Shown here: positions 2,661 through 52,349 of the stretch, in pieces
Numbering within the stretch: position 1 is the stretch's first letter
Layout: each line of letters begins with the position of its first letter
DNA from: an uncultured Oscillospiraceae bacterium
Lineage (GTDB): Bacteria > Bacillota > Clostridia > Oscillospirales > Oscillospiraceae
Reading direction: 5' to 3'
NCBI GenBank assembly: GCA_900763995.1
Contig: CAAFMK010000036.1
Coordinates: 1-55,588, forward strand
DNA: 55,588 nucleotides
The notes under the pieces: model-generated
Told to the model about the DNA's origin: nothing
The model's input: only the letters and a program-made list of their open reading frames with translations
The model's database searches: none
Program-made: the position numbers and the translations under genes

Positions 2661-2712
2661 CCTATTATTTTTAAAAATAATGAGATCTATTTGTATTAGG
2701 AGGAACCCAGAT

Positions 2713-5532: not shown

Positions 5533-5673
5533 TTCCAATCCTGCTGTGATTCCCCCCGCCCGGTGCTGTGCCCGCCCACTGCACCGGACGGGCACAGCTG
5601 TCTGCCACAGGTCTCTGGCCCCATATCCCAGACCGCAGACCCAAGAATTTTCTTGAAAACTGGGGATTTTTCC

Positions 5674-5702
5674 TTTACATTGTGGGGAAAATATGATATA
5701 TT
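5674..5702 (+). promoter_or_regulatory. Promoter of rpsO-pnp
   Basis: TTTACA-17 nt-TATATT with extended TG. Confidence 0.6.
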
Positions 5703-5709
5703 TACCGGG

Positions 5710-5860
5710 CATATGATGTGCATCGCCCCTCGCTTCGTTTCGGGACATGGCTCAGGCAACAGTCTGGGGCTTCACCCGCCCGTTACGCAGCCCTTGGGCC
5801 ATAAACACTGTGTCCCCTCCCATCTGGGCGGGACACGATTATAGAAAGGTGGAGTTTTCC
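5710..5860 (+). promoter_or_regulatory. Structured rpsO 5' leader, candidate S15 autoregulatory RNA
   Basis: Stems ATGGCTCAGG/CTTGGGCCAT and GTGTCCC/GGGACAC; position upstream of rpsO. Confidence 0.5.
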
Positions 5861-8482: not shown

Positions 8483-8505
8483 TTCCAAGTTTCGTGTCTT
8501 TTCAG

Positions 8506-8543
8506 GATAGGGAGCGGCAAATGCCGTTCCCTATCTTTTGTTT
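8506..8543 (+). terminator. Intrinsic terminator after pnp
   Basis: GATAGGGAGCGGCA/TGCCGTTCCCTATC hairpin followed by TTTTGTTT. Confidence 0.85.
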
Positions 8544-8545
8544 AG

Positions 8546-8574
8546 TTGCGTATTTTCCAATTATCCTCTATAAT
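8546..8574 (+). promoter_or_regulatory. Sigma-A promoter of the ymdB operon
   Basis: TTGCGT-17 nt-TATAAT. Confidence 0.65.
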
Positions 8575-8677
8575 GAATGCAACCCTTTATTTATGGCACA
8601 AATGTTCCGCAGAAAATTTTGTGTGCTGGTATCCTTGTGCAGATGATTGAGACTGACTTCAAGGAGGATTGAATGAT

Positions 8678-9454
8678 ATGCTTCTTAATATACTTGCTGT
8701 AGGCGATGTGGTGGGAGAAGGGGGACAGGACATCCTTTCCCGCCGCCTGTCCGGCCTGCGGGATGAGCTGGGGGCCCACTTTGTTGTGGTCAACGGAGAA
8801 AACGCCTCTGGCGTGGGCATTACCCCCGCTCAGGCCAGACGGATGCTGGATGCCGGGGCCGATGTGATCACCCTGGGCAACCACACCTGGAACCGCATCC
8901 AGATCGGGGACTTTCTGGATCGGGAATCCCGCATTCTCCGCCCCGCCAACTACGCCGGGCGGGTGCCTGGGCGGGGGATGGGAATATACCCCTGTCAGGG
9001 ATTTCAGCTGGCGGTATTGAATCTCATGGGCCGGGTAGAGCTGAACCCCAACCTGGACAGCCCCTTTAAAATGGCCGACACCCTGTTAAAACAGGGGAAA
9101 TACGACCTGGCCCTTGTGGACTTCCACGCAGAGGTCACCAGCGAAAAGGGGGCTATGGCCTGGTATCTGGACGGGCGGGCGGCGGCTGTGTGGGGTACCC
9201 ACACCCATGTGCCCACCGCCGACTGTCAGATTTTGCCCAAGGGCACCGGCTTTGTCACCGATCTAGGGATGACCGGCCCCCGCCGCTCAGTGCTGGGTAT
9301 CCGGCCAGAGCACTCCATCAACCTGTTTTTAGGGGGACTGCCCCGGCGGTATCAGGAGGCGGAGGGCAACTGCAAGCTCAATGCCTGTCTATTCGCCATT
9401 GATACAGATCAGAAAAAGTGTGTGGCCGTCCAACGGACGGATATAGAGGAGTGA
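8678..9454 (+). CDS. ymdB: YmdB-family metallophosphoesterase (TIGR00282-like)
   Basis: GDVVG, VNGEN, TLGNH, VDFHAE, GTHTHV, TDLGMTG. Confidence 0.92.
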   Translation: MLLNILAVGDVVGEGGQDILSRRLSGLRDELGAHFVVVNGENASGVGITPAQARRMLDAGADVITLGNHTWNRIQIGDFLDRESRILRPANYAGRVPGRGMGIYPCQGFQLAVLNLMGRVELNPNLDSPFKMADTLLKQGKYDLALVDFHAEVTSEKGAMAWYLDGRAAAVWGTHTHVPTADCQILPKGTGFVTDLGMTGPRRSVLGIRPEHSINLFLGGLPRRYQEAEGNCKLNACLFAIDTDQKKCVAVQRTDIEE

Positions 9455-9458
9455 CCAT

Positions 9459-10544
9459 ATGCTGAAAATCATCCATGGGGCTGACTTTCATCTGGACAGC
9501 CCCTTTTCCGGCCTGAGCCCGGAGCGGGCGGCCCAGCGGCGCAGGGAGCTGCGGGAGCTGCCCCGGCGGCTGGCCCAGCTGGCCTGTGAAAAACAGGCGG
9601 ATCTGGTGCTGCTGCCCGGTGACCTGCTGGACTCCCACCAGGTCTATCAGGAGACGGTACAGGCCCTGATGGAGGCCCTTGGCTCCATGCCCTGTCCGGT
9701 ACTCATTGCCCCAGGGAACCACGACTACTTCTCCCGGAATTGCGTATACGCCACCATGCAGTGGCCTCAGCAGATACATATTTTTCAAACCGGGGCTTTG
9801 GAGGGGGTGGACTTTCCACCGCTGAACTGTACCGTGTGGGGCCGGGCCTTTGTCTCCAGTCATCAGGAGGAGTCCCCTCTGGATGGGCTGTCCATCCCAG
9901 AGGATGGGCGTATCCATCTGGCCTGTCTCCACGGCGATGTGGCCCCCCAGAGCCAGTACGGCCCCATCTCCCCTCAGGAGATCGCCAAAAGCGGGCTGCA
10001 CTACCTGGCCCTGGGCCATATCCACCAGTCCAGTGGACTCCAGCAGGCGGGTGACACCTTCTGGGCCTATCCGGGCTGTCCCGAGGGGCGTGGCTTTGAT
10101 GAGACGGGGGAAAAGGGGGTACTGTATGTAGAGGCAGATGGCCAGAATGTATCCGCCCAGTTTATCCCCCTGTGCCAGCGGAAATATGAGATTTTGTCGG
10201 TGGACATCACCCAGTCCCGGGATTTGGCGGAAACCATTGGAGCCGCTCTGCCCCCAGGTGCCCAGGAGCACATCTTCCGTATCCTGCTCACGGGGGAGGG
10301 GAAGCGCCCCGACCTGACCGCATTGGAGCGGACTTTGGCCCCTGGGTGCTACGGCCTGACCCTGCGGGATGGCACCCGTCTGCCCCAGGATCTGTGGGCC
10401 CGGAGGGAGGAGGACACCCTCACCGGGCTGTTCCTCCGGGCCATGTGGGAAAAGTGCCAGCAGGAGCCAGATAACCAGCTCTATCAGCTGGCCGTTCGAT
10501 ACGGGCTGAGTGCCCTGGAAAATGGAGAGGGGGGAGCTTTGTGA
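9459..10544 (+). CDS. SbcD/Mre11-like nuclease (YhaO-type)
   Basis: HGADFHLD, GDLLD, PGNHD, LHGD, LALGHIH, YPGCPEG. Confidence 0.9.
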   Translation: MLKIIHGADFHLDSPFSGLSPERAAQRRRELRELPRRLAQLACEKQADLVLLPGDLLDSHQVYQETVQALMEALGSMPCPVLIAPGNHDYFSRNCVYATMQWPQQIHIFQTGALEGVDFPPLNCTVWGRAFVSSHQEESPLDGLSIPEDGRIHLACLHGDVAPQSQYGPISPQEIAKSGLHYLALGHIHQSSGLQQAGDTFWAYPGCPEGRGFDETGEKGVLYVEADGQNVSAQFIPLCQRKYEILSVDITQSRDLAETIGAALPPGAQEHIFRILLTGEGKRPDLTALERTLAPGCYGLTLRDGTRLPQDLWARREEDTLTGLFLRAMWEKCQQEPDNQLYQLAVRYGLSALENGEGGAL

Positions 10545-13045
10545 AGGTACGATCCATGACCGCCACCTTTGGCAAGCTTGACCACGCCAAGCTGAAGCTG
10601 GGGGAGGGGCTCAACCTCATCTATGCCCCCAATGAGGGGGGCAAGTCCACCTGGGCCGCCTTCTTTAAGGCCATGCTCTATGGCATTGACACCCGGGATC
10701 GGGACAAAAAGGGCTATCTGGCCGATAAAAATCACTATCAGCCCTGGTCTGGCGCCCCCATGGAGGGGGAGATCCAGTTGGAGTGGCAGGGCCGGGAAAT
10801 CACCATTCGCCGCGGCCCCAGGGGAAATAACCCCTTTGGCTCCTTCTCCGCAGTGTACACTGGCACGGAGGAGCCGGTGCCCGGCCTGACCGGGGCCAAC
10901 TGCGGGGAGATGCTAACAGGTGTGGGGCTGGCTGTCTTTTCCCGCTCGGCCTTTCTGGGGGCGGACAATCTGGCCCTCACCTCCACCCCTGAGCTGGAGC
11001 GGAGAATTGCCGCTCTGGTCTCCTCCGGGGAGGAGGAGGTCTCCTTTACCCAGGTACAGGGCCGATTGAAAGAGTGGCTCAATAAGCGCCGGGTCAACAA
11101 AAGTGTGGGGGAGATCCCCCGGCTGGAGGAGGAGCTGATCCAGGTGCGCTCCCTCCTTGGCCAGCTCAATGAGATCACTGCTCAGGTCACCCAGCTAAAT
11201 GGCTCCCATGAGCAGCTGGAGCAGCAGTATCAGCAGCTGTGTGAGGAACAGCGGGCCCACCAGATCAGGGCCTGGAATCAGGTGGTACAGGAGCTTTCGG
11301 TGCTCACCGCCCAGTGTCAGCAGCTAAAAGAGGAGCGGGACAGCCTACAGCAGGATGAGGAGATCCATCACCGCCTGGCCCAGCAGGCCCTGAACCTCCG
11401 GTATGCACAGGCCAATGAGGAGCTGGAGCTGGCACAAAACCAGCTGGATGCCCTGCGCACTGAGCTGGCCCGGTTTGGCACCCTGCCTGACAGGGAGCTT
11501 TTGAAAAGGGCCCAGGGAGAGCTGCAATATCTCAAGGTGCTGGACGAGGAGATCAAGGCCGGGGAGGAAACTCTGCGCCAGGCGGACGAGCACTATGTAC
11601 AGGCCCAGATCAATGCTCAGGATGAGAATTTCTCTGGTATGTCCGCCCAGGAGGCCGCCCTCGCCGCCCAAAAAGCCACCAACGATCACACCCTCTATTT
11701 GCAGCACGCACAGCGCCAGCGCTCCAGGGCCCGTGTCTTCCCTGTGATCGGTCTGATTGCCGCTGTAGTGGGGGGGCTGATTTCCTACGCCCAGGGGGCA
11801 CCCTTTTTACTCTATCCCCTCTATATTGGACTTGGACTGTTTGGCTTGTCCATTGTGGCCACCTTTGTTGGACTGGTCCGAAAAAAGGTCTGGCTGGAGC
11901 GGGCAGCCAAGGCGCTCTCCCAATTTCATGCCCAGACCCCTGAGGAGTTGCAGGCGCTGGTTCAGGACTACACCAAGCGCTGTGACCAGTCCGACCAGGC
12001 TGCACAGCAGGCCAAGGTGGCCCGTGGTGCCCTGAACGAGCGAAAAGCCCGCCGAAACAACAGCTGGACAGATCTGATGGATTTTGTCCACACTTTTGCC
12101 CCAGAGGTGCAAAACTCCTTTGGCTGTTCTGCGGCGCTGTCCCGAGCTCTGAATCTTGAGCACGAGTTATCCACAGCCAGGGACAAAGTTGTGGAGCGCC
12201 GCCGCCGTATGGAGGATCTGGCCGCCCAGGGTGGCCAGCTGGGGGACTCCTCGGAGCTGCTCCCCACCCCCTCACGCCCGCTGGAGCGGGTGGAGCAGGA
12301 ACTGAGCCAGGTCAACGCACAGCTCCAGCAGGTGACCCAGCAGCTGGATCGGGTCAGGGGGCGGCAGGCCGCCATGAAGCAGCCTGAGGAGGGGGACGCC
12401 ACCCCACCTGTCACCCCACAAAGGACCCCGGAGCAGACTGAGCAGGCTCTTGTACAGGTGAAGGGGGAGCTGGAGCAGGTCAGCGCCCAGCTCCATCAGG
12501 CTCAGGGCAGACAGCGGGCCATGGGTGACCCCGCCGCCGTCTGTGCCCAAAAGGAGGGGCTGGAGCACGACTTAAAGCGCCGTACCCTGGAGTATGAGGC
12601 CCTGGCCCTGGCTATGGACACCATGCAGCAGTCAAACGCCCAGCTCCAGGAGCGCTTTTCCCCAGAGCTCAACCAGCTTTCAGGGCAGTATCTGGCCCGT
12701 CTGACCCAAAACAAATACCCCTCTGTCAGTCTGACACGGGATTTGGAGGGGGCGGTGCGCAGCACAGGTGACATTTTGCCCCGCAGTGCCCTCTACCTCT
12801 CCCATGGCACCGCAGATCAGCTGTATCTGGCGGCCCGGCTGGCGGTTTGCCAGCTGTGTCTGCCTGAAAAGCCCCCCATTGTGCTGGACGATGCCCTGGC
12901 CGCCTTTGATGAACAGCGGCTCACACAGGCCCTTAAGCTTCTTCGGGAACTCTCTGAGGATCAGCAGCTGCTGCTGTTCACCTGCCACAAGCGGGAGGAG
13001 CAGCTGCTGGAGGGCCAGCCCGGCGTCAGCGTGCTGTCCCTGTGA
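10541..13045 (+). CDS. SbcC/Rad50-like coiled-coil ATPase (YhaN/SbcE-type) with a central hydrophobic segment
   Basis: Walker A APNEGGKST, signature LSHGTADQ, Walker B VLDD, H-loop FTCH; long Q/E/L heptads; GTGA overlap with the nuclease gene. Confidence 0.88.
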   Translation: MKVRSMTATFGKLDHAKLKLGEGLNLIYAPNEGGKSTWAAFFKAMLYGIDTRDRDKKGYLADKNHYQPWSGAPMEGEIQLEWQGREITIRRGPRGNNPFGSFSAVYTGTEEPVPGLTGANCGEMLTGVGLAVFSRSAFLGADNLALTSTPELERRIAALVSSGEEEVSFTQVQGRLKEWLNKRRVNKSVGEIPRLEEELIQVRSLLGQLNEITAQVTQLNGSHEQLEQQYQQLCEEQRAHQIRAWNQVVQELSVLTAQCQQLKEERDSLQQDEEIHHRLAQQALNLRYAQANEELELAQNQLDALRTELARFGTLPDRELLKRAQGELQYLKVLDEEIKAGEETLRQADEHYVQAQINAQDENFSGMSAQEAALAAQKATNDHTLYLQHAQRQRSRARVFPVIGLIAAVVGGLISYAQGAPFLLYPLYIGLGLFGLSIVATFVGLVRKKVWLERAAKALSQFHAQTPEELQALVQDYTKRCDQSDQAAQQAKVARGALNERKARRNNSWTDLMDFVHTFAPEVQNSFGCSAALSRALNLEHELSTARDKVVERRRRMEDLAAQGGQLGDSSELLPTPSRPLERVEQELSQVNAQLQQVTQQLDRVRGRQAAMKQPEEGDATPPVTPQRTPEQTEQALVQVKGELEQVSAQLHQAQGRQRAMGDPAAVCAQKEGLEHDLKRRTLEYEALALAMDTMQQSNAQLQERFSPELNQLSGQYLARLTQNKYPSVSLTRDLEGAVRSTGDILPRSALYLSHGTADQLYLAARLAVCQLCLPEKPPIVLDDALAAFDEQRLTQALKLLRELSEDQQLLLFTCHKREEQLLEGQPGVSVLSL

Positions 13046-13048
13046 GAG

Positions 13049-13077
13049 TTGCATTCCAAGTATAAAATGGGTATAAT
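13049..13077 (+). promoter_or_regulatory. Sigma-A promoter of lepB
   Basis: TTGCAT-17 nt-TATAAT. Confidence 0.65.
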
Positions 13078-13118
13078 ATCATCCATAGATCACAGATCCC
13101 AAATAAGGAGGCCCTCCA

Positions 13119-13727
13119 ATGGATGAACAAAACAACCTGTCTGAGGTGGACGGGGAAACATCACCCACCCGCCCCGCAGGCAGTGAGCTATATGAATGGC
13201 TTCAGCTTCTCATGGGCTGTGTGCTGGCTGCGGTGGTGCTGTTTAACTGCTTTGCCCGGTTGACCCGAGTGGATGGCTCCTCTATGGACCCCACTTTGCA
13301 GCATGGGGAAATGATGCTGATCTGGTCTTTGGGCTACCAGCCCAAGCAGGGGGATATTGTGGTGCTCAACAAAATTGACACCGTCACCGACCAGCTGCTC
13401 CACAGCGCCGCCATTGTCAAGCGGGTGATCGCCACCGGCGGACAGACGGTGGACATCGACTACACCACCGGCACCGTCTATGTAGACGGGCTGCCCCTGA
13501 GTGAGACCTATACCAATGGGGAGATGTACCGCCCTGACCCCACCACACATCCCATGATGCAGCAGACCCACTGGGAGGTACCAGAGGACTCCATTTTCGT
13601 CATGGGGGACAACCGCAACGCCTCCACCGACAGCCGGGACGATATGGTTGGCCCTATCCACACCGACTATATTCTGGGCAAGGTGGTCTTTGCCCTGTGG
13701 CCTATGGAGAAATTTGGGTCCCTTTGA
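13119..13727 (+). CDS. lepB: Signal peptidase I
   Basis: N-terminal TM helix, GSSMDPTL, IVKRVIA, MGDNRNASTDSR. Confidence 0.95.
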   Translation: MDEQNNLSEVDGETSPTRPAGSELYEWLQLLMGCVLAAVVLFNCFARLTRVDGSSMDPTLQHGEMMLIWSLGYQPKQGDIVVLNKIDTVTDQLLHSAAIVKRVIATGGQTVDIDYTTGTVYVDGLPLSETYTNGEMYRPDPTTHPMMQQTHWEVPEDSIFVMGDNRNASTDSRDDMVGPIHTDYILGKVVFALWPMEKFGSL

Positions 13728-13808
13728 GCGGACGGTCCACAGCTCCACCCCTTTGTCCCATGTTCCTTCCCCGCCAGTCACCAGAGCTTAAAGGAGGCCT
13801 TTTTCACC

Positions 13809-14153
13809 ATGTCCAACATCGGCAACAATCGCACCCACGCCATGGATGAGCTGTTTCGCGGCATCCTGATGCTGCAGGACATTGACGAATGTTACCAGTT
13901 TTTCAGTGATCTGTTTACCATACAGGAGCTGACCGCCTTTGCCCAGCGCTTTCAGGTGGCAGAGCTTCTGGCAGATGGCAGCACCTACGAGGGCGTGAGG
14001 GAAAAGGTGCCCGCCAGCTACTCCACCATCACCCGCATCAATACTGAGCTACGGTATGGCTCGGGGGGCTATCAAATGGTGCTGGATCGACTAAAGCCCA
14101 ACAGGGAACATGATGCCCTACAGCAGTCTCTGCGCAATTTCCCCTTTATCTGA
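13809..14153 (+). CDS. YerC/YecD family TrpR-like regulator
   Basis: ECYQFFSDL.TI.EL..AQR..VA..L..G.TY..L.YG..GY pattern. Confidence 0.85.
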   Translation: MSNIGNNRTHAMDELFRGILMLQDIDECYQFFSDLFTIQELTAFAQRFQVAELLADGSTYEGVREKVPASYSTITRINTELRYGSGGYQMVLDRLKPNREHDALQQSLRNFPFI

Positions 14154-14171
14154 CCCTTTTCTATCTATTAC

Positions 14172-14213
14172 AGCACCTCTGTCAGTTTTATGTAATCTGA
14201 CAGAGGTGCTTTC
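14172..14213 (+). terminator. Hairpin/terminator after the yerC-like gene
   Basis: Perfect 14-bp inverted repeat AGCACCTCTGTCAG/CTGACAGAGGTGCT; short T-tract. Confidence 0.6.
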
Positions 14214-14243
14214 CACAATATCCAAAATAGGACAATCTTTCTC

Positions 14244-14271
14244 TTGACTTTTTGTGCGTATTGTATATAAT
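14244..14271 (+). promoter_or_regulatory. Sigma-A promoter of the M14 peptidase gene
   Basis: TTGACT-16 nt-TATAAT. Confidence 0.6.
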
Positions 14272-14349
14272 GATTATTAGTTCCAGCCGTGTCATACAGC
14301 TGGCTCAATCTGGTAAAAGAGAGAAGATAAAGGAAAGGATCTTGCTACT

Positions 14350-15831
14350 ATGAAAAAGCTTATAAAGCGTGCCCTTGGTATGATTCTCAGCACAGCTCTG
14401 GTTTGCTCCATCCTTACCCCCACCTCGTTGGCAGAGGACTCTAGCAGCCGCCCCACACGGGAGCTGCTCTCCATGGACTTCAAGCCAGAGGATCCCGCTC
14501 AGATCCCCAAGGGTCTGGAGATCGACTGGAACCACCGCTACCACTACAATGAGATCGAGGGTCAGCTGAATCGATTGGCTAAGGCCTATCCCCAGGTCAG
14601 CGACCTCTACTCCATTGGCACCTCCTGGCAGGAGCGTGACTTGTGGTGTCTGAAAATCACCAATGAGGCTGTGAGCGACTCCTATAAGACTGGTATTGGC
14701 GTATTTGCCAACATCCATGGTGGCGAGCGTGAAAGCACCTCCTCCGCTATGTATACCGCATGGTGGATGCTGCTCAACTCTAACGACCCCTATGTAAAGG
14801 CCATTTTGGACAACTACATCATCTATGTGGTGCCCATCATCAATCCCGATGGCTATGAGCAGTCCTTTGTCAATAACAACCGCCCCAACCTGCGCCCCAC
14901 CGACCGGAACGGGGATGGCATTCCCTTCAGCGACCCCTACACCGATATTGACAATGATGGCTATATCTCCACCATTTACCGGGGCAAGGCCAAGGATATG
15001 CCCTCCACCTCCATGCAGTATTTCGGCACTGAGAGCCCAGACTGGGACAAAAACGGCATTCTGGGCGATGACCCTCGTTCCAGCACCATCGACATGAACC
15101 GCACCTTTGATTTCCAGTGGAACCGCTTTGACATCGAGACCGAGGATACCCAGGTAATCGGCAACAACGCTTGGGGTTCTGCTGGCCCCGCCCCCGCCTC
15201 TGAGCCTGAGATCCGCGCCCTGCAGGACTTCATGTACAACACCCCCATGGACGCTCTGGTCTCCATCCACACTGGTATCCAGTGCGTGCTGTACCCCTGG
15301 TGCTACCGCCCCTATGATGCCAGCAACCCCAAGGATGCCGAGATCCCCTTCATGAAGGAGACCGCCGCCAAGATGGCCAAGGCATTCCAGGACACCACTG
15401 GCCGCGGCTACTACACCATGAGCTCCTATGAGGACTATCCCACCGCCGCTGAGATGATCGACTACGCCTTTGGCCGCTTCAACATCCACGCCTACACCAT
15501 CGAGGTATACCGTGGCGGCAAGTCTGAGTCTGGTGACATCTCTGAGTGTATTTGGGAGAATGAGCTGCCCCAGCCCACTTGGGTGTTCTACTCCCAGAGC
15601 AGGATCAAGGATGTGCTGCATCTGGACCCCTCCAAGCTGAAGGATGCCAATGGCAAGCCTCTGGCTGCTGATGAGGGCCTGTGGTTCTACACCAGCTCCA
15701 CTGCACAGATGGTCGACAAGGCCCCTGAGGGTCAGGACATTATGGTCAAGGGTGCACGTGACTCCATCCTCACCATGATTGAGAGTGAGCCCCACGGCCA
15801 GGGCTATCAGCGCCCCACCTATGTCAAGTAA
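14350..15831 (+). CDS. Secreted M14-family zinc carboxypeptidase
   Basis: Signal peptide (MKKLIKR..SLA), NIHGGE (HxxE), NPDG, DMNRTF, SIHTG, YTIEV. Confidence 0.88.
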   Translation: MKKLIKRALGMILSTALVCSILTPTSLAEDSSSRPTRELLSMDFKPEDPAQIPKGLEIDWNHRYHYNEIEGQLNRLAKAYPQVSDLYSIGTSWQERDLWCLKITNEAVSDSYKTGIGVFANIHGGERESTSSAMYTAWWMLLNSNDPYVKAILDNYIIYVVPIINPDGYEQSFVNNNRPNLRPTDRNGDGIPFSDPYTDIDNDGYISTIYRGKAKDMPSTSMQYFGTESPDWDKNGILGDDPRSSTIDMNRTFDFQWNRFDIETEDTQVIGNNAWGSAGPAPASEPEIRALQDFMYNTPMDALVSIHTGIQCVLYPWCYRPYDASNPKDAEIPFMKETAAKMAKAFQDTTGRGYYTMSSYEDYPTAAEMIDYAFGRFNIHAYTIEVYRGGKSESGDISECIWENELPQPTWVFYSQSRIKDVLHLDPSKLKDANGKPLAADEGLWFYTSSTAQMVDKAPEGQDIMVKGARDSILTMIESEPHGQGYQRPTYVK

Positions 15832-15857
15832 TCTCTCTTTTACAAACTGAAATTAGT

Positions 15858-15895
15858 AAAACACCCAGCTGGCAACCGCCAGCTGGGTGTTTTTT
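15858..15895. terminator. Bidirectional terminator
   Basis: AAAACACCCAGCTGGC/GCCAGCTGGGTGTTTT between convergent genes. Confidence 0.88.
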
Positions 15896-16676
15896 ACAGC
15901 TCTATTTCCATTGGTTCGTCCAGAAGGACTGGGCCGCCAATATAGGCAGATACAACTTTTCCACCCTGGCGCTCCACAGTGGCCTCTACCACCCCGGCGG
16001 GCTGTATGTACTGATGGGTCACTGTCCCATCTGGGGTAGTCTCACTTTGAGCCACTACACAGGCCAGCGAGCCGGAGCCACAGCTGCCCTCCCAGATCAT
16101 GGTATTGGAGGCAGGCACCTTGACCAGTGGGGTCATCTTGCTGGTCTCAGGCTCCAGGAAAATCACCCCATAGGCATCCAAACCAGGAATATCAGAAAAA
16201 ATTGGCTCTGCACCGTCAAAAAAATCCTGATTGGGGGTCACATTCTCCACGACAAGGTGGGCAATTCCCCCCAAATGGACTAAAGTACCCTTTGCACCGT
16301 TGATCTCCACCGCCTTTGTCCACAGGGGAAGGGGCATTTCTGACCGGGCGGTGCCCTCCTCCATATCCACATCTACCATCACTGGGTGGTCACAGCCGCT
16401 GACCTCCACCTGTATTGGCTGATTGCTGCCCTGCTGCTGGGCCAGGAGCATCCCAAAGGCCCGAGTGGCATTACCGCAGAACTCTCCTCCCGCCATTTCC
16501 ATACGGCCCTGGCTGCCCTGGGCAGGGGGACAGAGAAAGCCCACCTGCTCCACATGGAGCTCTGTCAGGGCCATGATTTTACTGGCAAGTTCAGTTCGCT
16601 GCTCTGTTGGGACGGGGGACATGACAAAAATGGTAATATTCCCCGCCGGGTTTACGCGCACCATCTTTATTTTCAT
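15894..16676 (-). CDS. DapF-fold cofactor-independent racemase, CntK-like (putative histidine racemase)
   Basis: NPAGNIT, EQVGF, MAGGEFCGNAT, VEVSGC, MTPLV, IWEGSCGSG and QPAG match the CntK pattern (NPSGNMT, EQVGF, EFCGNAT, WENSCGSG, QPGG) rather than DapF; AAGGAG RBS. Confidence 0.8.
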   Translation of the reverse strand: MKIKMVRVNPAGNITIFVMSPVPTEQRTELASKIMALTELHVEQVGFLCPPAQGSQGRMEMAGGEFCGNATRAFGMLLAQQQGSNQPIQVEVSGCDHPVMVDVDMEEGTARSEMPLPLWTKAVEINGAKGTLVHLGGIAHLVVENVTPNQDFFDGAEPIFSDIPGLDAYGVIFLEPETSKMTPLVKVPASNTMIWEGSCGSGSLACVVAQSETTPDGTVTHQYIQPAGVVEATVERQGGKVVSAYIGGPVLLDEPMEIEL

Positions 16677-16775
16677 ATCTGCTGCTCCTTTGTAAGGCAA
16701 TACCCACATCATTCAGCAAAAGAGATCTCTGGCAAGTTTGTCTGTACCGCAAATGCTGTCAGTGGGGTACTGCCT

Positions 16776-38098: not shown

Positions 38099-38491
38099 TT
38101 ACAGCTTTGTTCCGCAGCTGCGGCAGAATCGATCATTTTTTCCACAGCGGGCGCTGCACACCGGGCAGGACTGGGCCTGGCGCAGATCGGCGATCCGGGC
38201 CTTTACCTCGGCGATCTTCTCCGCCATCTCGTCTGCCTGGGCCAGCAGCTGGGTGACCACATCCCCCTGTGGGAGCCGCCCCATATGGGTTTGATACATC
38301 ACCTGGCCCAGCTGGCACATAATGTCGTTGTACGCCCCATTGAGGTCAAACAGCTGCACATTCATCTTGGCCACATCCACCATCTGTCCCGCTCTTTTGC
38401 CAGCCACTCTGGCGGTGTCTGCGGCTGCATCGGCCGCTATGCCCGCGCCACCCCGAATCAGATCCAGCAGATCCTTTACCTTATCATCCAT
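38099..38491 (-). CDS. Hypothetical helical protein with a C-terminal zinc ribbon
   Basis: CPVC..CRSCG; AAAGGAG RBS. Confidence 0.8.
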   Translation of the reverse strand: MDDKVKDLLDLIRGGAGIAADAAADTARVAGKRAGQMVDVAKMNVQLFDLNGAYNDIMCQLGQVMYQTHMGRLPQGDVVTQLLAQADEMAEKIAEVKARIADLRQAQSCPVCSARCGKNDRFCRSCGTKL

Positions 38492-38566: not shown

Positions 38567-38816
38567 CCAAAAAGGGGGGAGGCGAGGGCCATACACAGCC
38601 TCCCTTTTACTTTTTTGAACTCAAATCTCACACATTTTTTCAAATATCTTTCTATCCCATAATACCACAATGTTCTACAATTTTGGCATGAAAAGATGCC
38701 GAGGCTGCCTTCGGCTCTTTTCGGTATCCAGTATCGGTGAAGTGCGTGATTTAGTGAAATCACCGGAGTTCTACCCTATCCACACAAAGGTTAAAAGGGA
38801 GTACACAGCTTTTTCA

Positions 38817-38845
38817 TTGCTATTTCACCCAAGGGGTGGTAAAAT
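38817..38845 (+). promoter_or_regulatory. Promoter of the cell-wall operon
   Basis: TTGCTA-17 nt-TAAAAT with extended TG. Confidence 0.65.
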
Positions 38846-39005
38846 GAAAGGAATCTATACTCTGCTGTGTATGGTGGCTGGAGCGGGGTGGGTAAACTAT
38901 CCTCACGCTGGGCTGTTTTGCCAAATCACTGCCAGATCCAGCGGACTTTTTCAAATGGGGACTTGCCTGCCCCATTCCAAACCAGAGAAAAAAGGGGGCT
39001 TTGTT

Positions 39006-40073
39006 ATGCGCAAGCTGGTGATCGACCGCTCATCCATCAAGCATAACCTGTCCATCATCAAAGACCGGGCCGGGAATGCGGCCATCTATGGTGCACTGAC
39101 GGGGGACGGCGGTGGCGCTGGTATCATCCCTCTGGCTCAACTGCTGCGGGATGAGGGCATCGGCCGCTTTACCGTATCCGATATTCAGGAGGCCAAGCAG
39201 CTGCGGCAGGCCGGATTTGTGGAGGAGGAGATCCTCATGCTCCGGGCCACCACCGACCGCAGCGAGCTGGAGCAGCTGGTGGATCTGAATGTGGTGTGCA
39301 CCATCTCCTCTGTGGACACAGGCATGGCCCTCAACGCGCTGGCAGAAAACCGCTCCACCGTGGTAGAGGCCCACATTCAGGTGGACACCGGTATGGGCTT
39401 TGGGGGTTTTCTGGTCAGTGAGCCGGAAAAGCTGCTGCTGGCCTACCGCTCTTTGCCCAATGTGGCCCTGTCCGGCATATATACCCAGCTCCACACCGAC
39501 CAGTCCAACAGCTCCGGCTCCGCCCACCAGCTGGCGCAGTTTGAGCAGGTGCTAGAGGTGATCCGCACCGCCGGGTTTGAAACTGGAACAGTCCATGCCG
39601 CCGGCTCCTTCGCCCTGCTCCACAACGACGGGGCCATTCTGGATGCCGTCCGGGCGGGCTCTGCCATTTTAGGGCGGTGCCGCCGCACCAAGGACGACAG
39701 GCTCCGGGTGGTGGGCTATGGACAGGCCCCCCTGACCGAAGTGCGCTGGCTGCCCAAGGGGCACAGTGTGGGCACTGAGCGGCCCGTTATTCTCAAGCGG
39801 CCCACCCGGGTGGCGGTACTCCCTGTGGGGTACCAGAACGGCTATGGGGTCACCCGGCCCCAGCCGGAAACCTTCTTTGCGGCCTTTCGGGGCTGGAAGC
39901 AGTCCCGCCGCCGCACTGTGCGCATTGGCGACCAGCGGGCCAAACTTCTGGGGGCCATCGGCACCACAGAGACTATTTTGGATGTGACCAACCTGAAATG
40001 CTCCACCGGAGATCTGGCCATCTTTGAATTAGATCCCCTGTTTGCCAAAGGCTTTACCTTGGAATACCGATAA
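39006..40073 (+). CDS. Alanine-racemase-fold protein lacking the catalytic Lys and Tyr
   Basis: HNL, EA..LR.AG, HIQVDTGMG, VRAGSA and PVGY..G show the Alr fold; GALTGDGGGAG replaces AVVKANAYGHG; VGTE replaces VGYG. Confidence 0.8.
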   Translation: MRKLVIDRSSIKHNLSIIKDRAGNAAIYGALTGDGGGAGIIPLAQLLRDEGIGRFTVSDIQEAKQLRQAGFVEEEILMLRATTDRSELEQLVDLNVVCTISSVDTGMALNALAENRSTVVEAHIQVDTGMGFGGFLVSEPEKLLLAYRSLPNVALSGIYTQLHTDQSNSSGSAHQLAQFEQVLEVIRTAGFETGTVHAAGSFALLHNDGAILDAVRAGSAILGRCRRTKDDRLRVVGYGQAPLTEVRWLPKGHSVGTERPVILKRPTRVAVLPVGYQNGYGVTRPQPETFFAAFRGWKQSRRRTVRIGDQRAKLLGAIGTTETILDVTNLKCSTGDLAIFELDPLFAKGFTLEYR

Positions 40074-40091
40074 GAAAACGAGGTCTTTTCC

Positions 40092-41309
40092 ATGTCAAAT
40101 TCTCTCTCCTTCCAGCCCCTGCTCTTTGGTGGGGACATCAATGTATACAGTGTGGCCCGGGCCTTTCATGAGGCCTATGGGGTGCGCTCCATCGCCTACG
40201 GCAAGTACCCCTCCTTCCCCTGCCACGGCAGCGCCATTCTGGACTACCGGGTGTGCCCCAACAACGAGGACACCCAGGCCTTCCGCCAGAATGTGGAGAC
40301 TGTGTCCCGGGAATTTCCCGACAAAAAAGTGCTGCTGCTGGGGTGTGGAGACAGCTATGTGCAGCTTGCCGCCCACTGCAAGGACAGTTTCCCCGAAAAT
40401 GTCATCGCCCCCTACATTGATGGACAGCTGCTGGATACCCTGATCGACAAGGAGCAGTTTTATGCCCTGTGCGACCAGTACGGGGTAGACCACCCGGCCA
40501 CCTTTATCTATGATGGCTCCATGGGCCACGACTTCACCCTGCCCTGGGGCGGGCCCTACATCGCCAAGCCCGCTGACAGCGTGGCCTACTGGGACTGTGG
40601 AGACCACTCTCTGGCCAAGGTGTACATCTGCGACAGCTGGCAGGAGCTGCTGGACAGCCTTGACCATGTCTACGCCGCTGGGTATCAGGGCCACATGGTA
40701 CTACAGGAGTTCATCCCCGGGGATGACAGCTATATGCGGGTGCTCACCAACTACTCCGACCACAACGGACAGGTGAAGCTGATGTGTCTGGGCCATGTGC
40801 TGCTGGAGGAGCACTCCCCCCACGGCATTGGCAACCACGCCGTCATCATCACCGAGCACGATGAGGCGCTGGAGCAGAAGATCAAGGGCCTGCTGGAGCG
40901 CCTGCACTATGTGGGCTTTTCCAACTTCGACATCAAATATGACAGCCGGGACGGCAAGTATAAGGCCTTTGAGATCAACTGCCGCCAGGGCCGGAGCAAC
41001 TACTATGTCACCGGGGCGGGCCACAACATCGCCAAGCTGGTGGTGGAGGACTATGTACAGGGCAAAGAGCTGCCCCTTGTCATCACAAAAAACCGCTCCC
41101 TGTGGCGGATGGTTCCCAAACATGTGGCCTTTAAATTCACCCCCAAAAAGTACCATCAGGAGATGCGGGCCCTTATCCGGGCCGGGGCGGACAGCCACTC
41201 TCTGGTCTATCAGAAGGACAGCGCCCTCAAGCGCCGTCTGCGGGTGTTGAAAAACCATCTGGGCAACATCAAGCGCTTTGACCAGTACAACCGCATTCCA
41301 AAAGACTAA
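40092..41309 (+). CDS. ATP-grasp carboxylate-amine ligase, D-aspartate ligase (Asl/YxbA)-like
   Basis: GGDINVYSVARAFHEAYG, DKEQFY, KPADS, QEFIPGDD, NFDIKYD, FEINCRQGRSNYY. Confidence 0.85.
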   Translation: MSNSLSFQPLLFGGDINVYSVARAFHEAYGVRSIAYGKYPSFPCHGSAILDYRVCPNNEDTQAFRQNVETVSREFPDKKVLLLGCGDSYVQLAAHCKDSFPENVIAPYIDGQLLDTLIDKEQFYALCDQYGVDHPATFIYDGSMGHDFTLPWGGPYIAKPADSVAYWDCGDHSLAKVYICDSWQELLDSLDHVYAAGYQGHMVLQEFIPGDDSYMRVLTNYSDHNGQVKLMCLGHVLLEEHSPHGIGNHAVIITEHDEALEQKIKGLLERLHYVGFSNFDIKYDSRDGKYKAFEINCRQGRSNYYVTGAGHNIAKLVVEDYVQGKELPLVITKNRSLWRMVPKHVAFKFTPKKYHQEMRALIRAGADSHSLVYQKDSALKRRLRVLKNHLGNIKRFDQYNRIPKD

Positions 41310-41329
41310 TCCCCCACAGGAGGGCCCCT

Positions 41330-42049
41330 ATGCCAAATTACCGTCTGGGTGTGCTGGGGGGCATGGGCCCCCAGGCCACTAACACCTTTTACCAGTTTAT
41401 CCTTGACCGCACCGATGCACAGCGGGATCAGGATCACCTCAGTGCCCTGATTTTGTCCGACAGCCAGATGCCTGACCGGACTGCCGCCATTTTGGGTACC
41501 CAGCAGGAGAAACAGGCCGTCTTTGACCGTCTGCTCTCCGATGCCCGTCTGCTGGAGGGGGCTGGCTGCACAGTCATCGCCGTCCCCTGCAACACCTCCC
41601 ACTTTTTTCTTGACCAGGTACAGCAGGAAATTGGAATCCCTATCCTCCACATGATTCGGGAGACCGCCCAGCAGCTGGCCCGCCAGGGGTGCAGGCACCC
41701 GGGGATCCTGGCCACAGACGGCACCATCCGCACTGGGCTCTACCAAAAGGAATTTGCCGCTGTGGGCATTGAGGCGGTCACCCCATCCCCACAGGCTCAG
41801 GCAATGGTCATGTCCCTCATTTATGAGGACATCAAGGCCGGGCGGGATGCTGACCCACAGCAGTTTGCCGCCATCCACGCCGACCTCCTCCAGCAGGGCT
41901 GCGACTGTGGGGTGCTGGCCTGCACCGAGCTGTCCGTCTTTGGGGACAGGCACCATCTGCCCCCCTTTTACACTGACGCAATGGCGGTGCTGGCTGAACG
42001 GGCGGTGCTGTCCTGTGGAAAACCCCTGCGCCACATTTTCATGCAATAG
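41330..42049 (+). CDS. racD: Aspartate racemase (Asp/Glu racemase family)
   Basis: GVLGGMGPQAT, DQDH, PDRT, PCNTSH, LACTELS (both catalytic Cys present). Confidence 0.88.
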   Translation: MPNYRLGVLGGMGPQATNTFYQFILDRTDAQRDQDHLSALILSDSQMPDRTAAILGTQQEKQAVFDRLLSDARLLEGAGCTVIAVPCNTSHFFLDQVQQEIGIPILHMIRETAQQLARQGCRHPGILATDGTIRTGLYQKEFAAVGIEAVTPSPQAQAMVMSLIYEDIKAGRDADPQQFAAIHADLLQQGCDCGVLACTELSVFGDRHHLPPFYTDAMAVLAERAVLSCGKPLRHIFMQ

Positions 42050-42058
42050 AGGTGCGTT

Positions 42059-44422
42059 ATGGTACACACACTACATGATTATCTCTCCTTACTCAAAGAT
42101 CATGCGCTGCTCTCAGCTCCCATTCCAGAGGGCCTTGATCCCTCTGCTCCAGTGGCGCTGGTGTCCTACGACTCCCGCCAGGTGGCGCCAGGCACCCTGT
42201 TTTTGTGCAAGGGTGCCCATTTTAAACCGGAATTTCTGGAGATGGCCAAGGCGGGGGGTGCCGTTGCCTATGTGAGCCAGACCCCATACCCCCAGGTGGA
42301 TCTGCCCTGCATTCTGGTAAATGATATGCGCCAGACCATCGCCCCGCTGGCAGACCTCTTTTACGGCCATCCATCTCAGACCTTAAAAGTCATTGGTCTT
42401 ACCGGCACCAAGGGCAAGTCCTCCACCGCCTACTATCTGAAATACATTTTAGATGAGTATATGGCCCAGCAGGGCAGGGGGGAGAGCGGTATCATCTCCT
42501 CCATTGACACCTACGACGGGGTGGAGCGCTTTGAGTCCCATCTGACCACCCCGGAGCCGCTGGAGCTCCAGCGGCACTTTGCCCACGGGTTGGAGACTGG
42601 GATGGAGTACCTCACCATGGAGGTATCCAGTCAGGCTCTGAAATACCACCGCACCCTCTGCACCCAGTTTGCCGCCACCTGTTTTCTCAACATCGGCACC
42701 GACCACATCTCCCCCATTGAGCACCCGGACTTTGAGGACTACTTCTCCTCCAAGCTGAAAATTTTCACCCAGGGGGCCATCAACTGTGTCAATCTGGACT
42801 GCGACCACGCAGACCGCATCCTTCAGGCCGCCCAGCAGGCGGGCAGACCTCTGTTCACCTTCTCCCAGACCAATGAGCAGGCCGATGTATACGCCTCTCA
42901 GGTGCGCAAGCGGGGCAATGACATCCTGTTCCGGGTCAAGACCCGGCGGTTTCTCCGGGAGTTCCGCCTGACCATGCCGGGGCTGTTCAATGTAGAAAAC
43001 GCGCTGGCGGCCATCGCCGTATGCGAGGGACTGCAAATTCCGGAGCGGTGCATCTATGTGGGCCTGATGAAGGCCCGGGTGCCCGGGCGAATGGAGGTCT
43101 ACTCCAACGCAGATGACACCGTCATTGCCATTGTGGACTACGCCCACAACCGCATGAGCTTTGAGACCCTGTTCCGCTCTGTTCAGGCCGAGTACCCAGG
43201 TCGGCGGATCGTCACCGTCTTTGGCTGTCCGGGGAAAAAAGCCCTGGATCGGCGGCGGGATCTGGGGGAGGTCTCGGGAAAATACTCTGATCTGGTCATC
43301 CTCACCGAGGAGGACAGCGGGGAGGAGGACACCCAGACCATCTGTGAGGAGATCGCTGGCCATGTGGCACAGCAAAACTGTGAGTACTCCATCGAGCCCA
43401 ACCGGGGCGAGGCCATCCGGCAGGCCATTTTGGGGTGCAGCCAGCCCTCTGTTTTGCTCATCACCGGCAAGGGGGCTGAGACCCGCCAGAAGCGGGGCAC
43501 CCAGTATATCGACACCCCATCTGATGTGGACTATGTACACAGCTTCCTCCATGAGTACGATGTACAGCATGGGCTGGACGGCATGGAGAAGGTGCGCAGT
43601 CTGCTGTCCCTTCTGCCCATCCTCAAGCGCCACGAGGGTAAAACTGTGGTGGTCAAATACGGCGGCTCTGCCATCGGGGCCGAGTCTGACCGGGACACCA
43701 CCTTACAGGATGTAGCCGCCCTGCGGATGGTTGGAATGCGGGTGGTGCTGGTACACGGGGGCGGCAAGCACATCACCGCCCTGCTGGACAAGCTCCATGT
43801 GCCCACCCGCTTTGAAAATGGCTATCGGGTCACCGATGAGGCCGCACTGGGTGCCGCCGAGCTGGCCCTGTCCGCACAGGTCAACAAGGCCATTGTCAGC
43901 GATCTGGCACAGCTGGAGGTGTCCGGCGTGGGCCTGTCGGGCAAGGACGGGGGTCTTATCACCGCCGCTGTGAAAGACCCCGCTCTGGGCCGGGTGGGTA
44001 CCATCACCAAGGTCAATCCCAAGGTGCTCAACACCCTGCTGGACGCCGACTTTTTGCCTGTCATTTCCCCCATCGCACTGGGGGAGGACGGCGGCGGGCT
44101 CAACTGCAACGCCGATGACGCCGCCCGGGCGGTGGCCGAGGCCCTTGGGGCGGAGAGCCTTGTTTTCCTCACCGACATCGGGGGTATCCTCATCGACAGC
44201 CACAACAGCAAGACCGCCGTAGACCGCATGGACATCAAGCGGGCCCAGGAGCTGATCGAGACCGGGCTGATCGCCGGGGGCATGGTGCCCAAGGTACAGG
44301 GCTGCATCCACGCCATCCGCGGCGGGGTGGGGGAGGTCTCCATTCTGGATGGCCGGGTGGAGCACGCACTGCTGCTGCATATGCTGGGCCAGCGCTCCTC
44401 CGGCACCACCATTACCGGATGA
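42059..44422 (+). CDS. murE-argB: MurE-type UDP-MurNAc-tripeptide synthetase fused to N-acetylglutamate kinase
   Basis: MurE: GLTGTKGKSS, LTTPE, MEVSS, GRME, VDYAHN. ArgB from Met509 (43583): VVKYGG, VHGGG, GYRVT, NCNADD, LTDIGG, GGMVPK. One continuous 787-aa frame. Confidence 0.92.
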   Translation: MVHTLHDYLSLLKDHALLSAPIPEGLDPSAPVALVSYDSRQVAPGTLFLCKGAHFKPEFLEMAKAGGAVAYVSQTPYPQVDLPCILVNDMRQTIAPLADLFYGHPSQTLKVIGLTGTKGKSSTAYYLKYILDEYMAQQGRGESGIISSIDTYDGVERFESHLTTPEPLELQRHFAHGLETGMEYLTMEVSSQALKYHRTLCTQFAATCFLNIGTDHISPIEHPDFEDYFSSKLKIFTQGAINCVNLDCDHADRILQAAQQAGRPLFTFSQTNEQADVYASQVRKRGNDILFRVKTRRFLREFRLTMPGLFNVENALAAIAVCEGLQIPERCIYVGLMKARVPGRMEVYSNADDTVIAIVDYAHNRMSFETLFRSVQAEYPGRRIVTVFGCPGKKALDRRRDLGEVSGKYSDLVILTEEDSGEEDTQTICEEIAGHVAQQNCEYSIEPNRGEAIRQAILGCSQPSVLLITGKGAETRQKRGTQYIDTPSDVDYVHSFLHEYDVQHGLDGMEKVRSLLSLLPILKRHEGKTVVVKYGGSAIGAESDRDTTLQDVAALRMVGMRVVLVHGGGKHITALLDKLHVPTRFENGYRVTDEAALGAAELALSAQVNKAIVSDLAQLEVSGVGLSGKDGGLITAAVKDPALGRVGTITKVNPKVLNTLLDADFLPVISPIALGEDGGGLNCNADDAARAVAEALGAESLVFLTDIGGILIDSHNSKTAVDRMDIKRAQELIETGLIAGGMVPKVQGCIHAIRGGVGEVSILDGRVEHALLLHMLGQRSSGTTITG

Positions 44423-44436
44423 TCCGGCATCATATC

Positions 44437-44479
44437 AAAAAAAACTGGACGGCTGAACAACTCAGCCATCCAGTTTTTT
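44437..44479. terminator. Bidirectional terminator
   Basis: AAAAAACTGGACGGCTGA/TCAGCCATCCAGTTTTTT. Confidence 0.85.
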
Positions 44480-51662: not shown

Positions 51663-52349
51663 ATGGAATTTAACCCATCTGCACTACAGGCCAAGCGGGA
51701 GCAGCTGCTTCAAAGCGGCGTTCTCATGATGGACCCCGGCAGTGTCTATGTGGAGGAGGGGGTAGAGGTCGGTGTGGGCACCGTCCTTTTACCTGGCACC
51801 ATTTTGCGTGGAAAAACTGTGATCGGCACAGACTGCCAGATCGGCCCCCAGGTGATGCTCACCAACTGCATTGTGGGGAAGGGCTGCACCATCAACGCCT
51901 CCCAGTGTGAGGACAGTGAGCTTCAGGACAACTGCCAGATCGGCCCCTACACCCATATCAGGCCCCACTGCACAGTGGGCGAGGGCTCTAAGATCGGCGC
52001 TTTTGTCCAGCTGAAAAACTGCACCCTGGGCAAGGGCACCAAGATGGCCCATCTGACCTATGTGGGGGACAGTGATGTGGGGGACAACTGCAACTTTGGC
52101 TGTGGCACCATCACCTGCAATTACGACGGATTTCAAAAATTCCGCACCACCATCGGCAGCGATGTATTTGTGGGGTGCAATACAAACCTCGTCCCCCCGG
52201 TTCAGGTGGGGGATGGCGCCTTCATTGCTGCGGCCACCACCGTCACACAGGATGTTCCAGAAGATGCCATGGTCATTGGCCGGACCCGCCAGCAGGTCAA
52301 GGAGGGCTGGGCCGCTGCCAATCGGGCAAAAAAAGGGAAAAAAGCATAA
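51663..52349 (+). CDS. glmU: Stand-alone GlmU C-terminal (glucosamine-1-phosphate N-acetyltransferase) domain
   Basis: Hexapeptide repeats, IGPYTHIRP, HLTYVGD, GCGTITCNYDG; no N-terminal uridylyltransferase domain; AGGAGG RBS; glmU-prs-pth synteny. Confidence 0.88.
   Translation: MEFNPSALQAKREQLLQSGVLMMDPGSVYVEEGVEVGVGTVLLPGTILRGKTVIGTDCQIGPQVMLTNCIVGKGCTINASQCEDSELQDNCQIGPYTHIRPHCTVGEGSKIGAFVQLKNCTLGKGTKMAHLTYVGDSDVGDNCNFGCGTITCNYDGFQKFRTTIGSDVFVGCNTNLVPPVQVGDGAFIAAATTVTQDVPEDAMVIGRTRQQVKEGWAAANRAKKGKKA

Follow-up and report, generated by a model that had tools for sequence, protein, structure and literature searches.

A 55,588-nucleotide (nt) contig of an uncultured Oscillospiraceae bacterium (GenBank assembly GCA_900763995.1, contig CAAFMK010000036.1), analyzed along its whole 55.6-kb length and referred to here as the window, carries a four-gene operon at positions 39006 to 44422. 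We consider it probable (roughly 0.7) that this is a chromosomal operon for cytoplasmic steps leading to a stem peptide without diaminopimelic acid (DAP) and with a D-aspartate side branch. Homology and linkage give good support to a module for a D-Asp-branched stem containing lysine (Lys) or ornithine (Orn), a known type of wall. The pseudo-alanine racemase encoded by the first gene and the fusion of MurE to the N-acetylglutamate kinase ArgB encoded by the fourth are lineage-specific, new parts; the ligase-racemase-MurE core extends a known system and is common among clostridia. The operon and its signals are laid out as follows, with lengths in amino acids (aa) and PLP denoting pyridoxal 5'-phosphate.

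38817..38845, + strand: sigma-70-type promoter, TTGCTA-17 nt-TG-n-TAAAAT, from a consensus scan, hexamers conserved
38846..39005, + strand: 5' leader with a conserved purine-rich ribosome-binding box before the ATG, from alignment with relatives
39006..40073, + strand: pseudo-alanine racemase gene, 355 aa, of the Alr/VanT fold but altered at catalytic and PLP-binding residues
40092..41309, + strand: gene for a predicted ATP-grasp carboxylate-amine ligase (P0002), 405 aa, a homologue of the lactic-acid-bacterium D-aspartate ligase type
41330..42049, + strand: gene for a PLP-independent, RacD-like Asp/Glu-type racemase (P0003) with catalytic cysteines C87 and C198
42059..43573, + strand: MurE domain (non-DAP class) of the fusion protein, TIGR01085 above cut-off
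43310..43321, + strand: EDSG at the DNPR site of MurE, residues 418-421
43574..44422, + strand: ArgB (N-acetylglutamate kinase) domain fused in frame to MurE, TIGR00761 above cut-off
44439..44479, + strand: intrinsic terminator hairpin with U-run, from folding against shuffles; missed by the terminator scan

The assignment of the stem peptide comes from the MurE half of the fourth product, a 787-aa protein with the Pfam domains Mur_ligase_M, Mur_ligase_C and AA_kinase. This half belongs to the MurE family (TIGR01085, 294.9 bits against a cut-off of 257.3), aligns to solved MurEs over residues 16-488 and conserves the P-loop TGTKGKS and the GKGAE motif. In the alignment with three solved DAP-type enzymes (8g6p, 2wtz and 7b6o), EDSG falls at the site of DNPR, as the initial annotation of this DNA had read from the letters alone, and none of the DAP-specific equivalog models reaches its cut-off. 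Nor does the model for an L-lysine ligase, NF010628 (318.9 bits against 536). According to PMC3829189, the distal carboxylate of DAP is bound by two residues of DNPR, Asn and Arg, and the amine by the first Asp together with a Glu; the motif of Staphylococcus aureus MurE is DNPA. Relative to DNPR, the enzyme here has Gly in place of Arg and Asp in place of Asn, and the Glu is retained in GKGAE. Because the Asn and Arg that serve the distal carboxylate are lost and the acidic amine-binding residues are kept, the substrate would be cationic. EDSG is present in 119 of 120 listed homologues of the fusion. Among the nearest cluster representatives that span the motif site (n = 143), Asp stands at position 2 in 128 and Gly at position 4 in 87, Arg occupies position 4 in 2 and DNPR occurs in none, which places the domain in a large non-DAP group; its relatives include MurEs of Enterococcus, Collinsella and Bifidobacterium. 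On these residues the MurE domain is of the non-DAP class, and we infer Lys or Orn as its substrate.

The D-Asp branch is indicated by the two preceding genes. The ligase is 36% identical to a Latilactobacillus curvatus ligase over 99% of its length (E = 1e-86), and the racemase is a full-length homologue (38% identity) of the L. curvatus racemase; the gene order in that organism is aspS, 'amino acid racemase', 'carboxylate-amine ligase'. With the ligases of L. fermentum and L. crispatus, P0002 shares 34% and 37% identity, respectively. These lactobacillus ligases were found by a protein search of a plasmid collection (large lactobacillus records), and the comparison is with them and not with the characterized AslA and Aslfm sequences themselves. 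By its homology to a racemase-adjacent ligase of lactic acid bacteria, P0002 classes as a putative D-aspartate ligase; its homologues are labeled 'ATP-grasp domain-containing protein' at NCBI and 'D-aspartate ligase' at JGI. A solved structural relative of the ligase was not found, the match of its profile to 2pn1 being weak (E = 0.058). The racemase scores 204 bits with TIGR00035 (cut-off 93.1), carries the Pfam domain Asp_Glu_race and has the two thiols of an Asp racemase, C87 and C198, which all 20 aligned sequences share. PMC4155827 describes AslA as an enzyme of the ATP-grasp type whose reaction runs through beta-aspartyl phosphate; in Lactococcus lactis its operon also holds racD, and L-Orn is reported for L. 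fermentum. The ligase-racemase pair is homologous to a lactobacillus pair whose arrangement corresponds to racD-aslA of lactic acid bacteria, which points to a Lys or Orn stem branched with D-Asp.

In the proposed pathway, the racemase would convert L-Asp to D-Asp, as its family and its pairing with the ligase suggest. The MurE domain, in which the change of motif is observed and the substrate deduced, would add L-Orn or L-Lys at stem position 3. The ligase would activate D-Asp as beta-aspartyl phosphate and join it to the position-3 side-chain amine of the UDP-N-acetylmuramyl (UDP-MurNAc) peptide, as predicted from its homology to AslA. The fused ArgB would couple ornithine production to MurE and the result would be an A4beta-like wall. 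The first gene is a conserved, dead Alr/VanT paralogue that was gained once in this subclade and cannot carry out PLP-dependent two-base racemization; its most likely role, put forward tentatively, may be that of a non-catalytic ligand-binding or regulatory partner in the pathway.

The fusion of MurE to ArgB, which the initial annotation had also proposed, is borne out by scores above cut-off for both families. TIGR00761 (argB) gives 233.3 bits against 151.3, so that this half classes as an N-acetylglutamate kinase, and residues 510-785 match the solved Thermotoga maritima N-acetylglutamate kinase 2bty (E = 1.7e-63), with the N-terminal helix region included. The 120 listed fusion homologues are 772-835 aa long and 76-100% identical (all but one at least 80%), and all have the three domains. 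Their ArgB motifs are nearly uniform: KYGG[SA] is found in 119 of 120, and HGGG, N[CI]NAD and GGM[VA]PK in 120 of 120 each. The ratio of nonsynonymous to synonymous substitution rates (dN/dS) of the ArgB domain against locus L001 is 0.155 by a Nei-Gojobori script, at dS values of 0.5-1.1 that are near saturation. The domain is an intact and strongly constrained N-acetylglutamate kinase. In a search that covered 1.84 billion cluster representatives, of which the best 150 were examined, a single one matched the fusion end to end (P0364, 795 aa, 60% identity), and the nearest unfused MurEs among those 150 are 49-62% identical. The fusion is limited to a single narrow clade, and in sister lineages it has decayed to a remnant. 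A literature search, judged by titles and abstracts, turned up no paper on a fusion of MurE with acetylglutamate kinase.

The product of the first gene has the Pfam domains Ala_racemase_N and Ala_racemase_C, scores 135.2 bits with TIGR00492, below the cut-off of 168, and finds its best solved matches in VanTG (4ecl, E = 6.4e-25) and a lysine racemase (4dza, E = 8.3e-24). When it was mapped on 4ecl, with residue names from PMC4542195 (chain index + 338 gives the numbering of that paper), the catalytic Lys and Tyr' pair of an alanine racemase was found to be missing. Lys376 is replaced by T32 and Tyr603 by T257, in line with the dead racemase described by the initial annotation, and Tyr380, Arg470 and His498 are replaced by G36, F132 and Q161. 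An Arg (R216), Gly559 (G218) and Tyr622' (Y276) are retained. At the Lys site the 120 homologues have Thr in 103, Ser in 7 and Ala in 6, with 4 unmatched by the regular expression and Lys in none; at the Tyr site they have Thr in 77, Ala in 34 and another residue in 7, with 2 unmatched by the regular expression and Tyr in none. Because many pocket-lining segments are invariant across 25 aligned sequences and dN/dS is 0.22-0.29, we regard this protein as maintained, under purifying selection, rather than encoded by a decaying gene. No report of a pseudo-alanine racemase was found in the literature.

The distribution of the operon was surveyed by one genome-contig scan with the MurE alignment, which gave at least 80 loci in which the five operon parts were then placed by tblastn; counts below refer to the 80 listed loci. 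A survey of this kind had been suggested by the initial annotation, and it recovered the ligase-racemase-murE core in 19 loci from several clostridial families and groups (Oscillospiraceae, Bariatricus of the Lachnospiraceae, Clostridium aminobutyricum, Anaerovoracaceae and Family XIII). Ligase only accompanies murE in 3 loci, racemase only in 2, one of which ends at a contig end, and neither in 56, mostly Collinsella. The pseudo-racemase is found with murE in 4 loci (L001, L002, L003 and L005), and the full ArgB fusion in 3 (L001, cut by a contig end, L006 and L037). In a quick tree of 83 rows (the window, 79 primary MurEs and 3 second MurEs, with L057 left out because its match is shorter than 400 residues), for which the support values are SH-aLRT only, the window groups with L001-L003 (99), with L004 and L005 as sister. 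L007 and L008, which are without ArgB, branch next outward, followed by L006 (support 100), and L037 lies outside. These positions suggest that the fusion is older than the pseudo-racemase and was lost or degraded more than once. The gaps within the module also vary among relatives. L002 carries a DUF1963 gene (8693-9961) in the space between racemase and murE, and non-coding inserts of 0.4-0.7 kb separate ligase and racemase in L001 (8496-9136), L005 (8577-9252) and L006 (8846-9271). The L001 and L006 inserts share a 28-nt inverted match, and no conserved extra gene was found in the three gaps.

Transcription of the open reading frames (ORFs) between 39006 and 44422 as a single unit is supported. 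The four genes are co-directional with intergenic gaps of 18, 20 and 9 nt, within the 9-20 nt given by the initial annotation, and the one promoter and one terminator that it had described were recovered at the conserved site 38817-38845 and in the hairpin at 44439-44479. The promoter scan alone is weak evidence, since between 38000 and 45000 it returned 6 sites against 2.8 +/- 2.0 in shuffles. Both hexamers of the 38817-38845 site are conserved in L001, L002, L003 and L005, and its flanks are not; another + strand consensus match, at 40486-40514 within the ligase gene, has no such support. The pseudo-racemase frame is nested within a longer ORF (38670-40073, +). All four aligned relatives share its start ATG at 39006 and the purine-rich AGAAGGGGG box upstream of it; conservation does not extend farther upstream, and about 90 nt of the leader (window 38900-38990) are absent from the four. 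A riboswitch or other leader RNA was ruled out: the 515-nt upstream region holds no Rfam family at threshold, and the leader (38846-39005) folds no better than shuffles (z = -0.86). The terminator hairpin, by comparison, reaches -24 kcal/mol (z = -6.24), with none of 200 shuffles equally stable. The genes on either side of it converge, the next ORF ending at 44489, and the A-run upstream of the hairpin would make it usable from both strands.

Several observations weigh against the reading of this operon as a dedicated Orn- or Lys-D-Asp module, and they bear on the alternatives considered here. Remnants of the ArgB domain are found in L002, L003, L004, L005, P0367 and P0368, and ArgB is absent from L007 and L008. 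The remnants of L002, L003 and L005 are without the stretches that hold the KYGG, HGGG, NxNAD and GGMxPK motifs; that of L004 is without the first two of these stretches, and the other two motifs are lost. Their dN/dS is 0.55-0.64, against 0.19-0.35 for the MurE part. Because ArgB is lost or decayed in close relatives, MurE is independent of the kinase there and the argument for ornithine becomes weaker. Matches of the ligase to curated ATP-grasp models are sub-threshold only (PRK12767, 26 bits; ATPgrasp_Ter, 16.5 bits). For Lawsonibacter, Flavonifractor and Pseudoflavonifractor, no wall type was found in the literature, and descriptions in the International Journal of Systematic and Evolutionary Microbiology may hold chemotype data. 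In the table of a 2024 review (PMC11382707), Faecalibacterium, which belongs to the same family, is entered with mesoDAP, and Oscillibacter and Ruminococcaceae have '-'. As to the remnants themselves, the MurEs that bear them lie at L002:10001-11941, L003:10001-11950, L004:2022-4166 and L005:10001-11983, in addition to P0367 and P0368. Their tails of about 150-210 residues keep the helix region and the C-terminal lobe, and the boundaries of the catalytic-core deletion vary by lineage. The idea that these tails are arginine-sensor remnants was considered and is of low probability, given the dN/dS of 0.55-0.64 and a match to an amino-acid-kinase model in only one of two tails.

The stem residue may be ornithine or lysine. 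Within the favored explanation we place L-Orn at about even odds, on the logic of fusion and neighborhood; it is slightly favored because the fusion is read as tying ornithine production to MurE. The alternative is L-Lys, in an A4alpha-like L-Lys-D-Asp wall such as that of enterococci and most lactobacilli, with the ArgB fusion an accident of gene order that caught the housekeeping kinase and has no mechanistic meaning. Lys-D-Asp is given as the commonest partner of AslA-type ligases in PMC4155827, Enterococcus species are among the relatives of this MurE, sister lineages that dropped or decayed ArgB kept MurE, ligase and racemase, and the selectivity of S. aureus MurE is described as coming partly from cytoplasmic pools and not from pocket residues (PMC3829189). 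Moreover, the MurE clade mixes Lys-wall taxa (Enterococcus) with taxa known as Orn-walled, and no residue signature that splits Orn-adding from Lys-adding MurEs was found among the named comparators. Against lysine stand two independent contexts that link the clade to ornithine, the fusion itself and argCJBD near Collinsella-type murE genes, and the intact ArgB domain is more constrained than other parts of the operon. In 14 listed Collinsella-type loci argB precedes murE by a few kb; L026 and L047 are annotated with argC-argJ-argB-argD and an asnB-type amidotransferase beside murE, and Collinsella aerofaciens with asnB-murE-murI. This neighborhood would form a second, independent link between the MurE clade and ornithine synthesis. 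An arginase-family gene beside the DNPR-type murE of L013 also counts toward ornithine. The Collinsella wall is of the L-Orn-D-Asp type. A4beta is entered under Eubacterium in the review table, with a Collinsella paper as its reference (PMC11382707). We regard a lysine stem as possible and slightly less favored than ornithine, and of the Lys/Orn-D-Asp wall module predicted by the initial annotation, the non-DAP MurE and the lactobacillus-like pair stand, whereas ornithine rests on fusion and neighborhood logic that the decay of ArgB weakens. Among these loci, the arg-asnB-murE(non-DNPR)-murI neighborhoods of the Collinsella type extend over L026:1989-6873 and 7709-9709, L047:5830-11443 and L084:6892-12401.

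A different possibility is that the module serves only certain conditions or stages and is not the main wall pathway, while a separate DNPR-type MurE makes DAP precursors for another wall, such as that of the spore cortex or of default growth. In 3 of the listed loci a second murE with DNPR and GKGHE was found no more than about 3 kb from the module murE. In L007 the second gene (11748-13205) follows in tandem, 190 nt after the module murE; in L008 (12113-13738, -) it lies about 0.7 kb off on the opposite strand; and in L013, a Bariatricus locus, it lies about 3 kb off (14436-15944) beside an arginase-family gene (13447-14373, -). In L007 and L013 the module MurE has EDSG or EDPG beside the DNPR/GKGHE paralogue, and L007 and L008 are nested within the fusion clade. 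DAP precursors may thus also be made in these relatives, a further point against a purely non-DAP wall, and a DNPR-type MurE near the module means that the organism may make two precursor types, for example for vegetative wall and spore cortex. In Lysinibacillus sphaericus the vegetative wall is of the Lys-D-Asp type and the cortex contains DAP, each residue being added by its own enzyme; our literature search for this B. sphaericus two-wall precedent returned nothing. The second DNPR-type murE that the initial annotation proposed to look for is thus present in relatives but absent from the 55.6-kb window, where no additional murE, argB, alr, ligase or racemase was found outside the operon, and the promoter is of the plain sigma-70 type and conserved among relatives. 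We consider a stage-specific role rather unlikely as a replacement for the favored explanation, with which it is compatible rather than exclusive of it. Still less likely, as a whole, is the most specific scenario, in which abundant, butyrate-producing gut Oscillospiraceae of the Lawsonibacter/Pseudoflavonifractor group would have an L-Orn-D-Asp wall with fusion-coupled ornithine supply, a recruited PLP-less Alr paralogue and a retained DNPR-type MurE for a switch between NOD1-silent and NOD1-active states. Finally, the ligase and racemase could serve another D-amino acid (D-Glu or D-cysteate) or a non-wall product, their linkage to murE being coincidental. The ligase is without an above-threshold curated family or a solved relative, and the racemase exceeds the cut-off of the cysteate-racemase model (204.5 bits against 190), which also counts against an Asp racemase. 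That model, however, is non-discriminating, because the Asp-type racemase of L. curvatus scores almost equally with it (185 bits), and the cysteate reading was set aside for that reason. The order ligase-racemase-murE recurs in the 19 loci of several families, and both proteins are full-length homologues of a lactobacillus pair adjoining aspS, so that another product is highly improbable. The D-Asp-branched, non-DAP precursor remains our preferred reading.

The surroundings of the operon are those of a housekeeping region. Its neighbors are ileS, pnp, recJ, relA, dtd, hemZ, mazG, a SpoVB/MurJ-type flippase gene, proCBA, prs and pth, the neighborhood is syntenic with loci L002 and L017, and G+C content is about 58% across the whole window. 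The names attached to close homologues put the organism with the Lawsonibacter/Pseudoflavonifractor/Flavonifractor-like Oscillospiraceae. A mobile island was ruled out by the flat composition and these syntenic neighbors. The 'rewiring' operon of the initial annotation is not an island special to this genome, given the core in 19 of the 80 listed loci and the syntenic setting here; nor is the module self-contained, as had been suggested, since MurC, MurD, MurF, Ddl and a true Alr lie outside the operon. Some further features were recorded. Divergent to the operon, a small 130-aa protein (38099-38491, -) has a Cys-rich, zinc-ribbon-like C terminus and no family match. A T-box leader (2409-2636, 114.8 bits) lies directly 5' of ileS (2680-5532), and in this G+C-rich DNA the real ileS is masked by a longer antisense ORF (2671-5748). 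A DapF-superfamily protein (15897-16712, -) has its best matches in histidine-racemase models (117 bits against a cut-off of 400). A 228-aa ORF (51663-52346) matches only the acetyltransferase C-terminal half of GlmU (profile positions 241-447), and no uridyltransferase half was seen beside it. Among the relatives, the PLSDB 'plasmid' records L081, L082 and L084 (CP033372.1, CP117684.1 and NZ_OY725717.1) measure 0.59-0.90 Mb, carry aspS, murE, murI and lysS, and look like mislabeled chromosome pieces.

Stem position 3 and the cross-bridge set how host receptors detect muropeptides, how endolysins and other hydrolases cut the wall and how cell-wall antibiotics act. The dipeptide iE-DAP is sensed by NOD1. 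The effects on NOD1 sensing and endolysin susceptibility put forward in the initial annotation remain inference. For most gut Oscillospiraceae and Ruminococcaceae the wall type is uncharacterized in the 2024 review table (PMC11382707), and for this organism the gene evidence predicts a non-DAP, D-Asp-branched wall. The MurE-ArgB fusion offers a lead on how precursor supply may be coupled to wall synthesis, and the dead racemase a lead on the recruitment of pseudoenzymes into a pathway.

Comparison with known systems shows where the operon agrees and where it departs from them. As in racD-aslA of Lactococcus lactis and the Aslfm-racemase pair of Enterococcus faecium, a ligase, here a predicted ATP-grasp enzyme, adjoins a two-cysteine Asp racemase; in this operon, however, the ligase precedes the racemase, the pair is co-transcribed with murE and the host is a clostridial gut anaerobe. 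In the lactobacillus records (n = 3) murE is not adjacent to the ligase-racemase pair, whereas here it adjoins it. The MurE domain shares with Lys-type MurEs (S. aureus, with DNPA, and T. maritima) the three-domain Mur ligase architecture, all ATP-site motifs, the loss of the Arg of DNPR and the retention of an acidic residue and the Glu of GKGxE. It differs from them in EDSG (Asp at position 2 and Gly at position 4), in its membership of a large [ED]DPG-type group and in the ArgB fusion, and from DAP-type MurEs (Escherichia coli and Mycobacterium tuberculosis), which carry DNPR, in the motif itself. Both domains of alanine racemase and of the VanT serine racemase (PLP-dependent, fold type III) are recognized in the pseudo-racemase, but its acid-base pair of Lys and Tyr has been replaced, as have three further residues of the PLP site. 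Like the fused MurE-MurF (PDB 8f5d; NF008896) and MurF-Alr (NF008897), the MurE-ArgB protein joins a wall ligase to a precursor-supply enzyme, with the difference that its partner is a kinase of the arginine/ornithine pathway.

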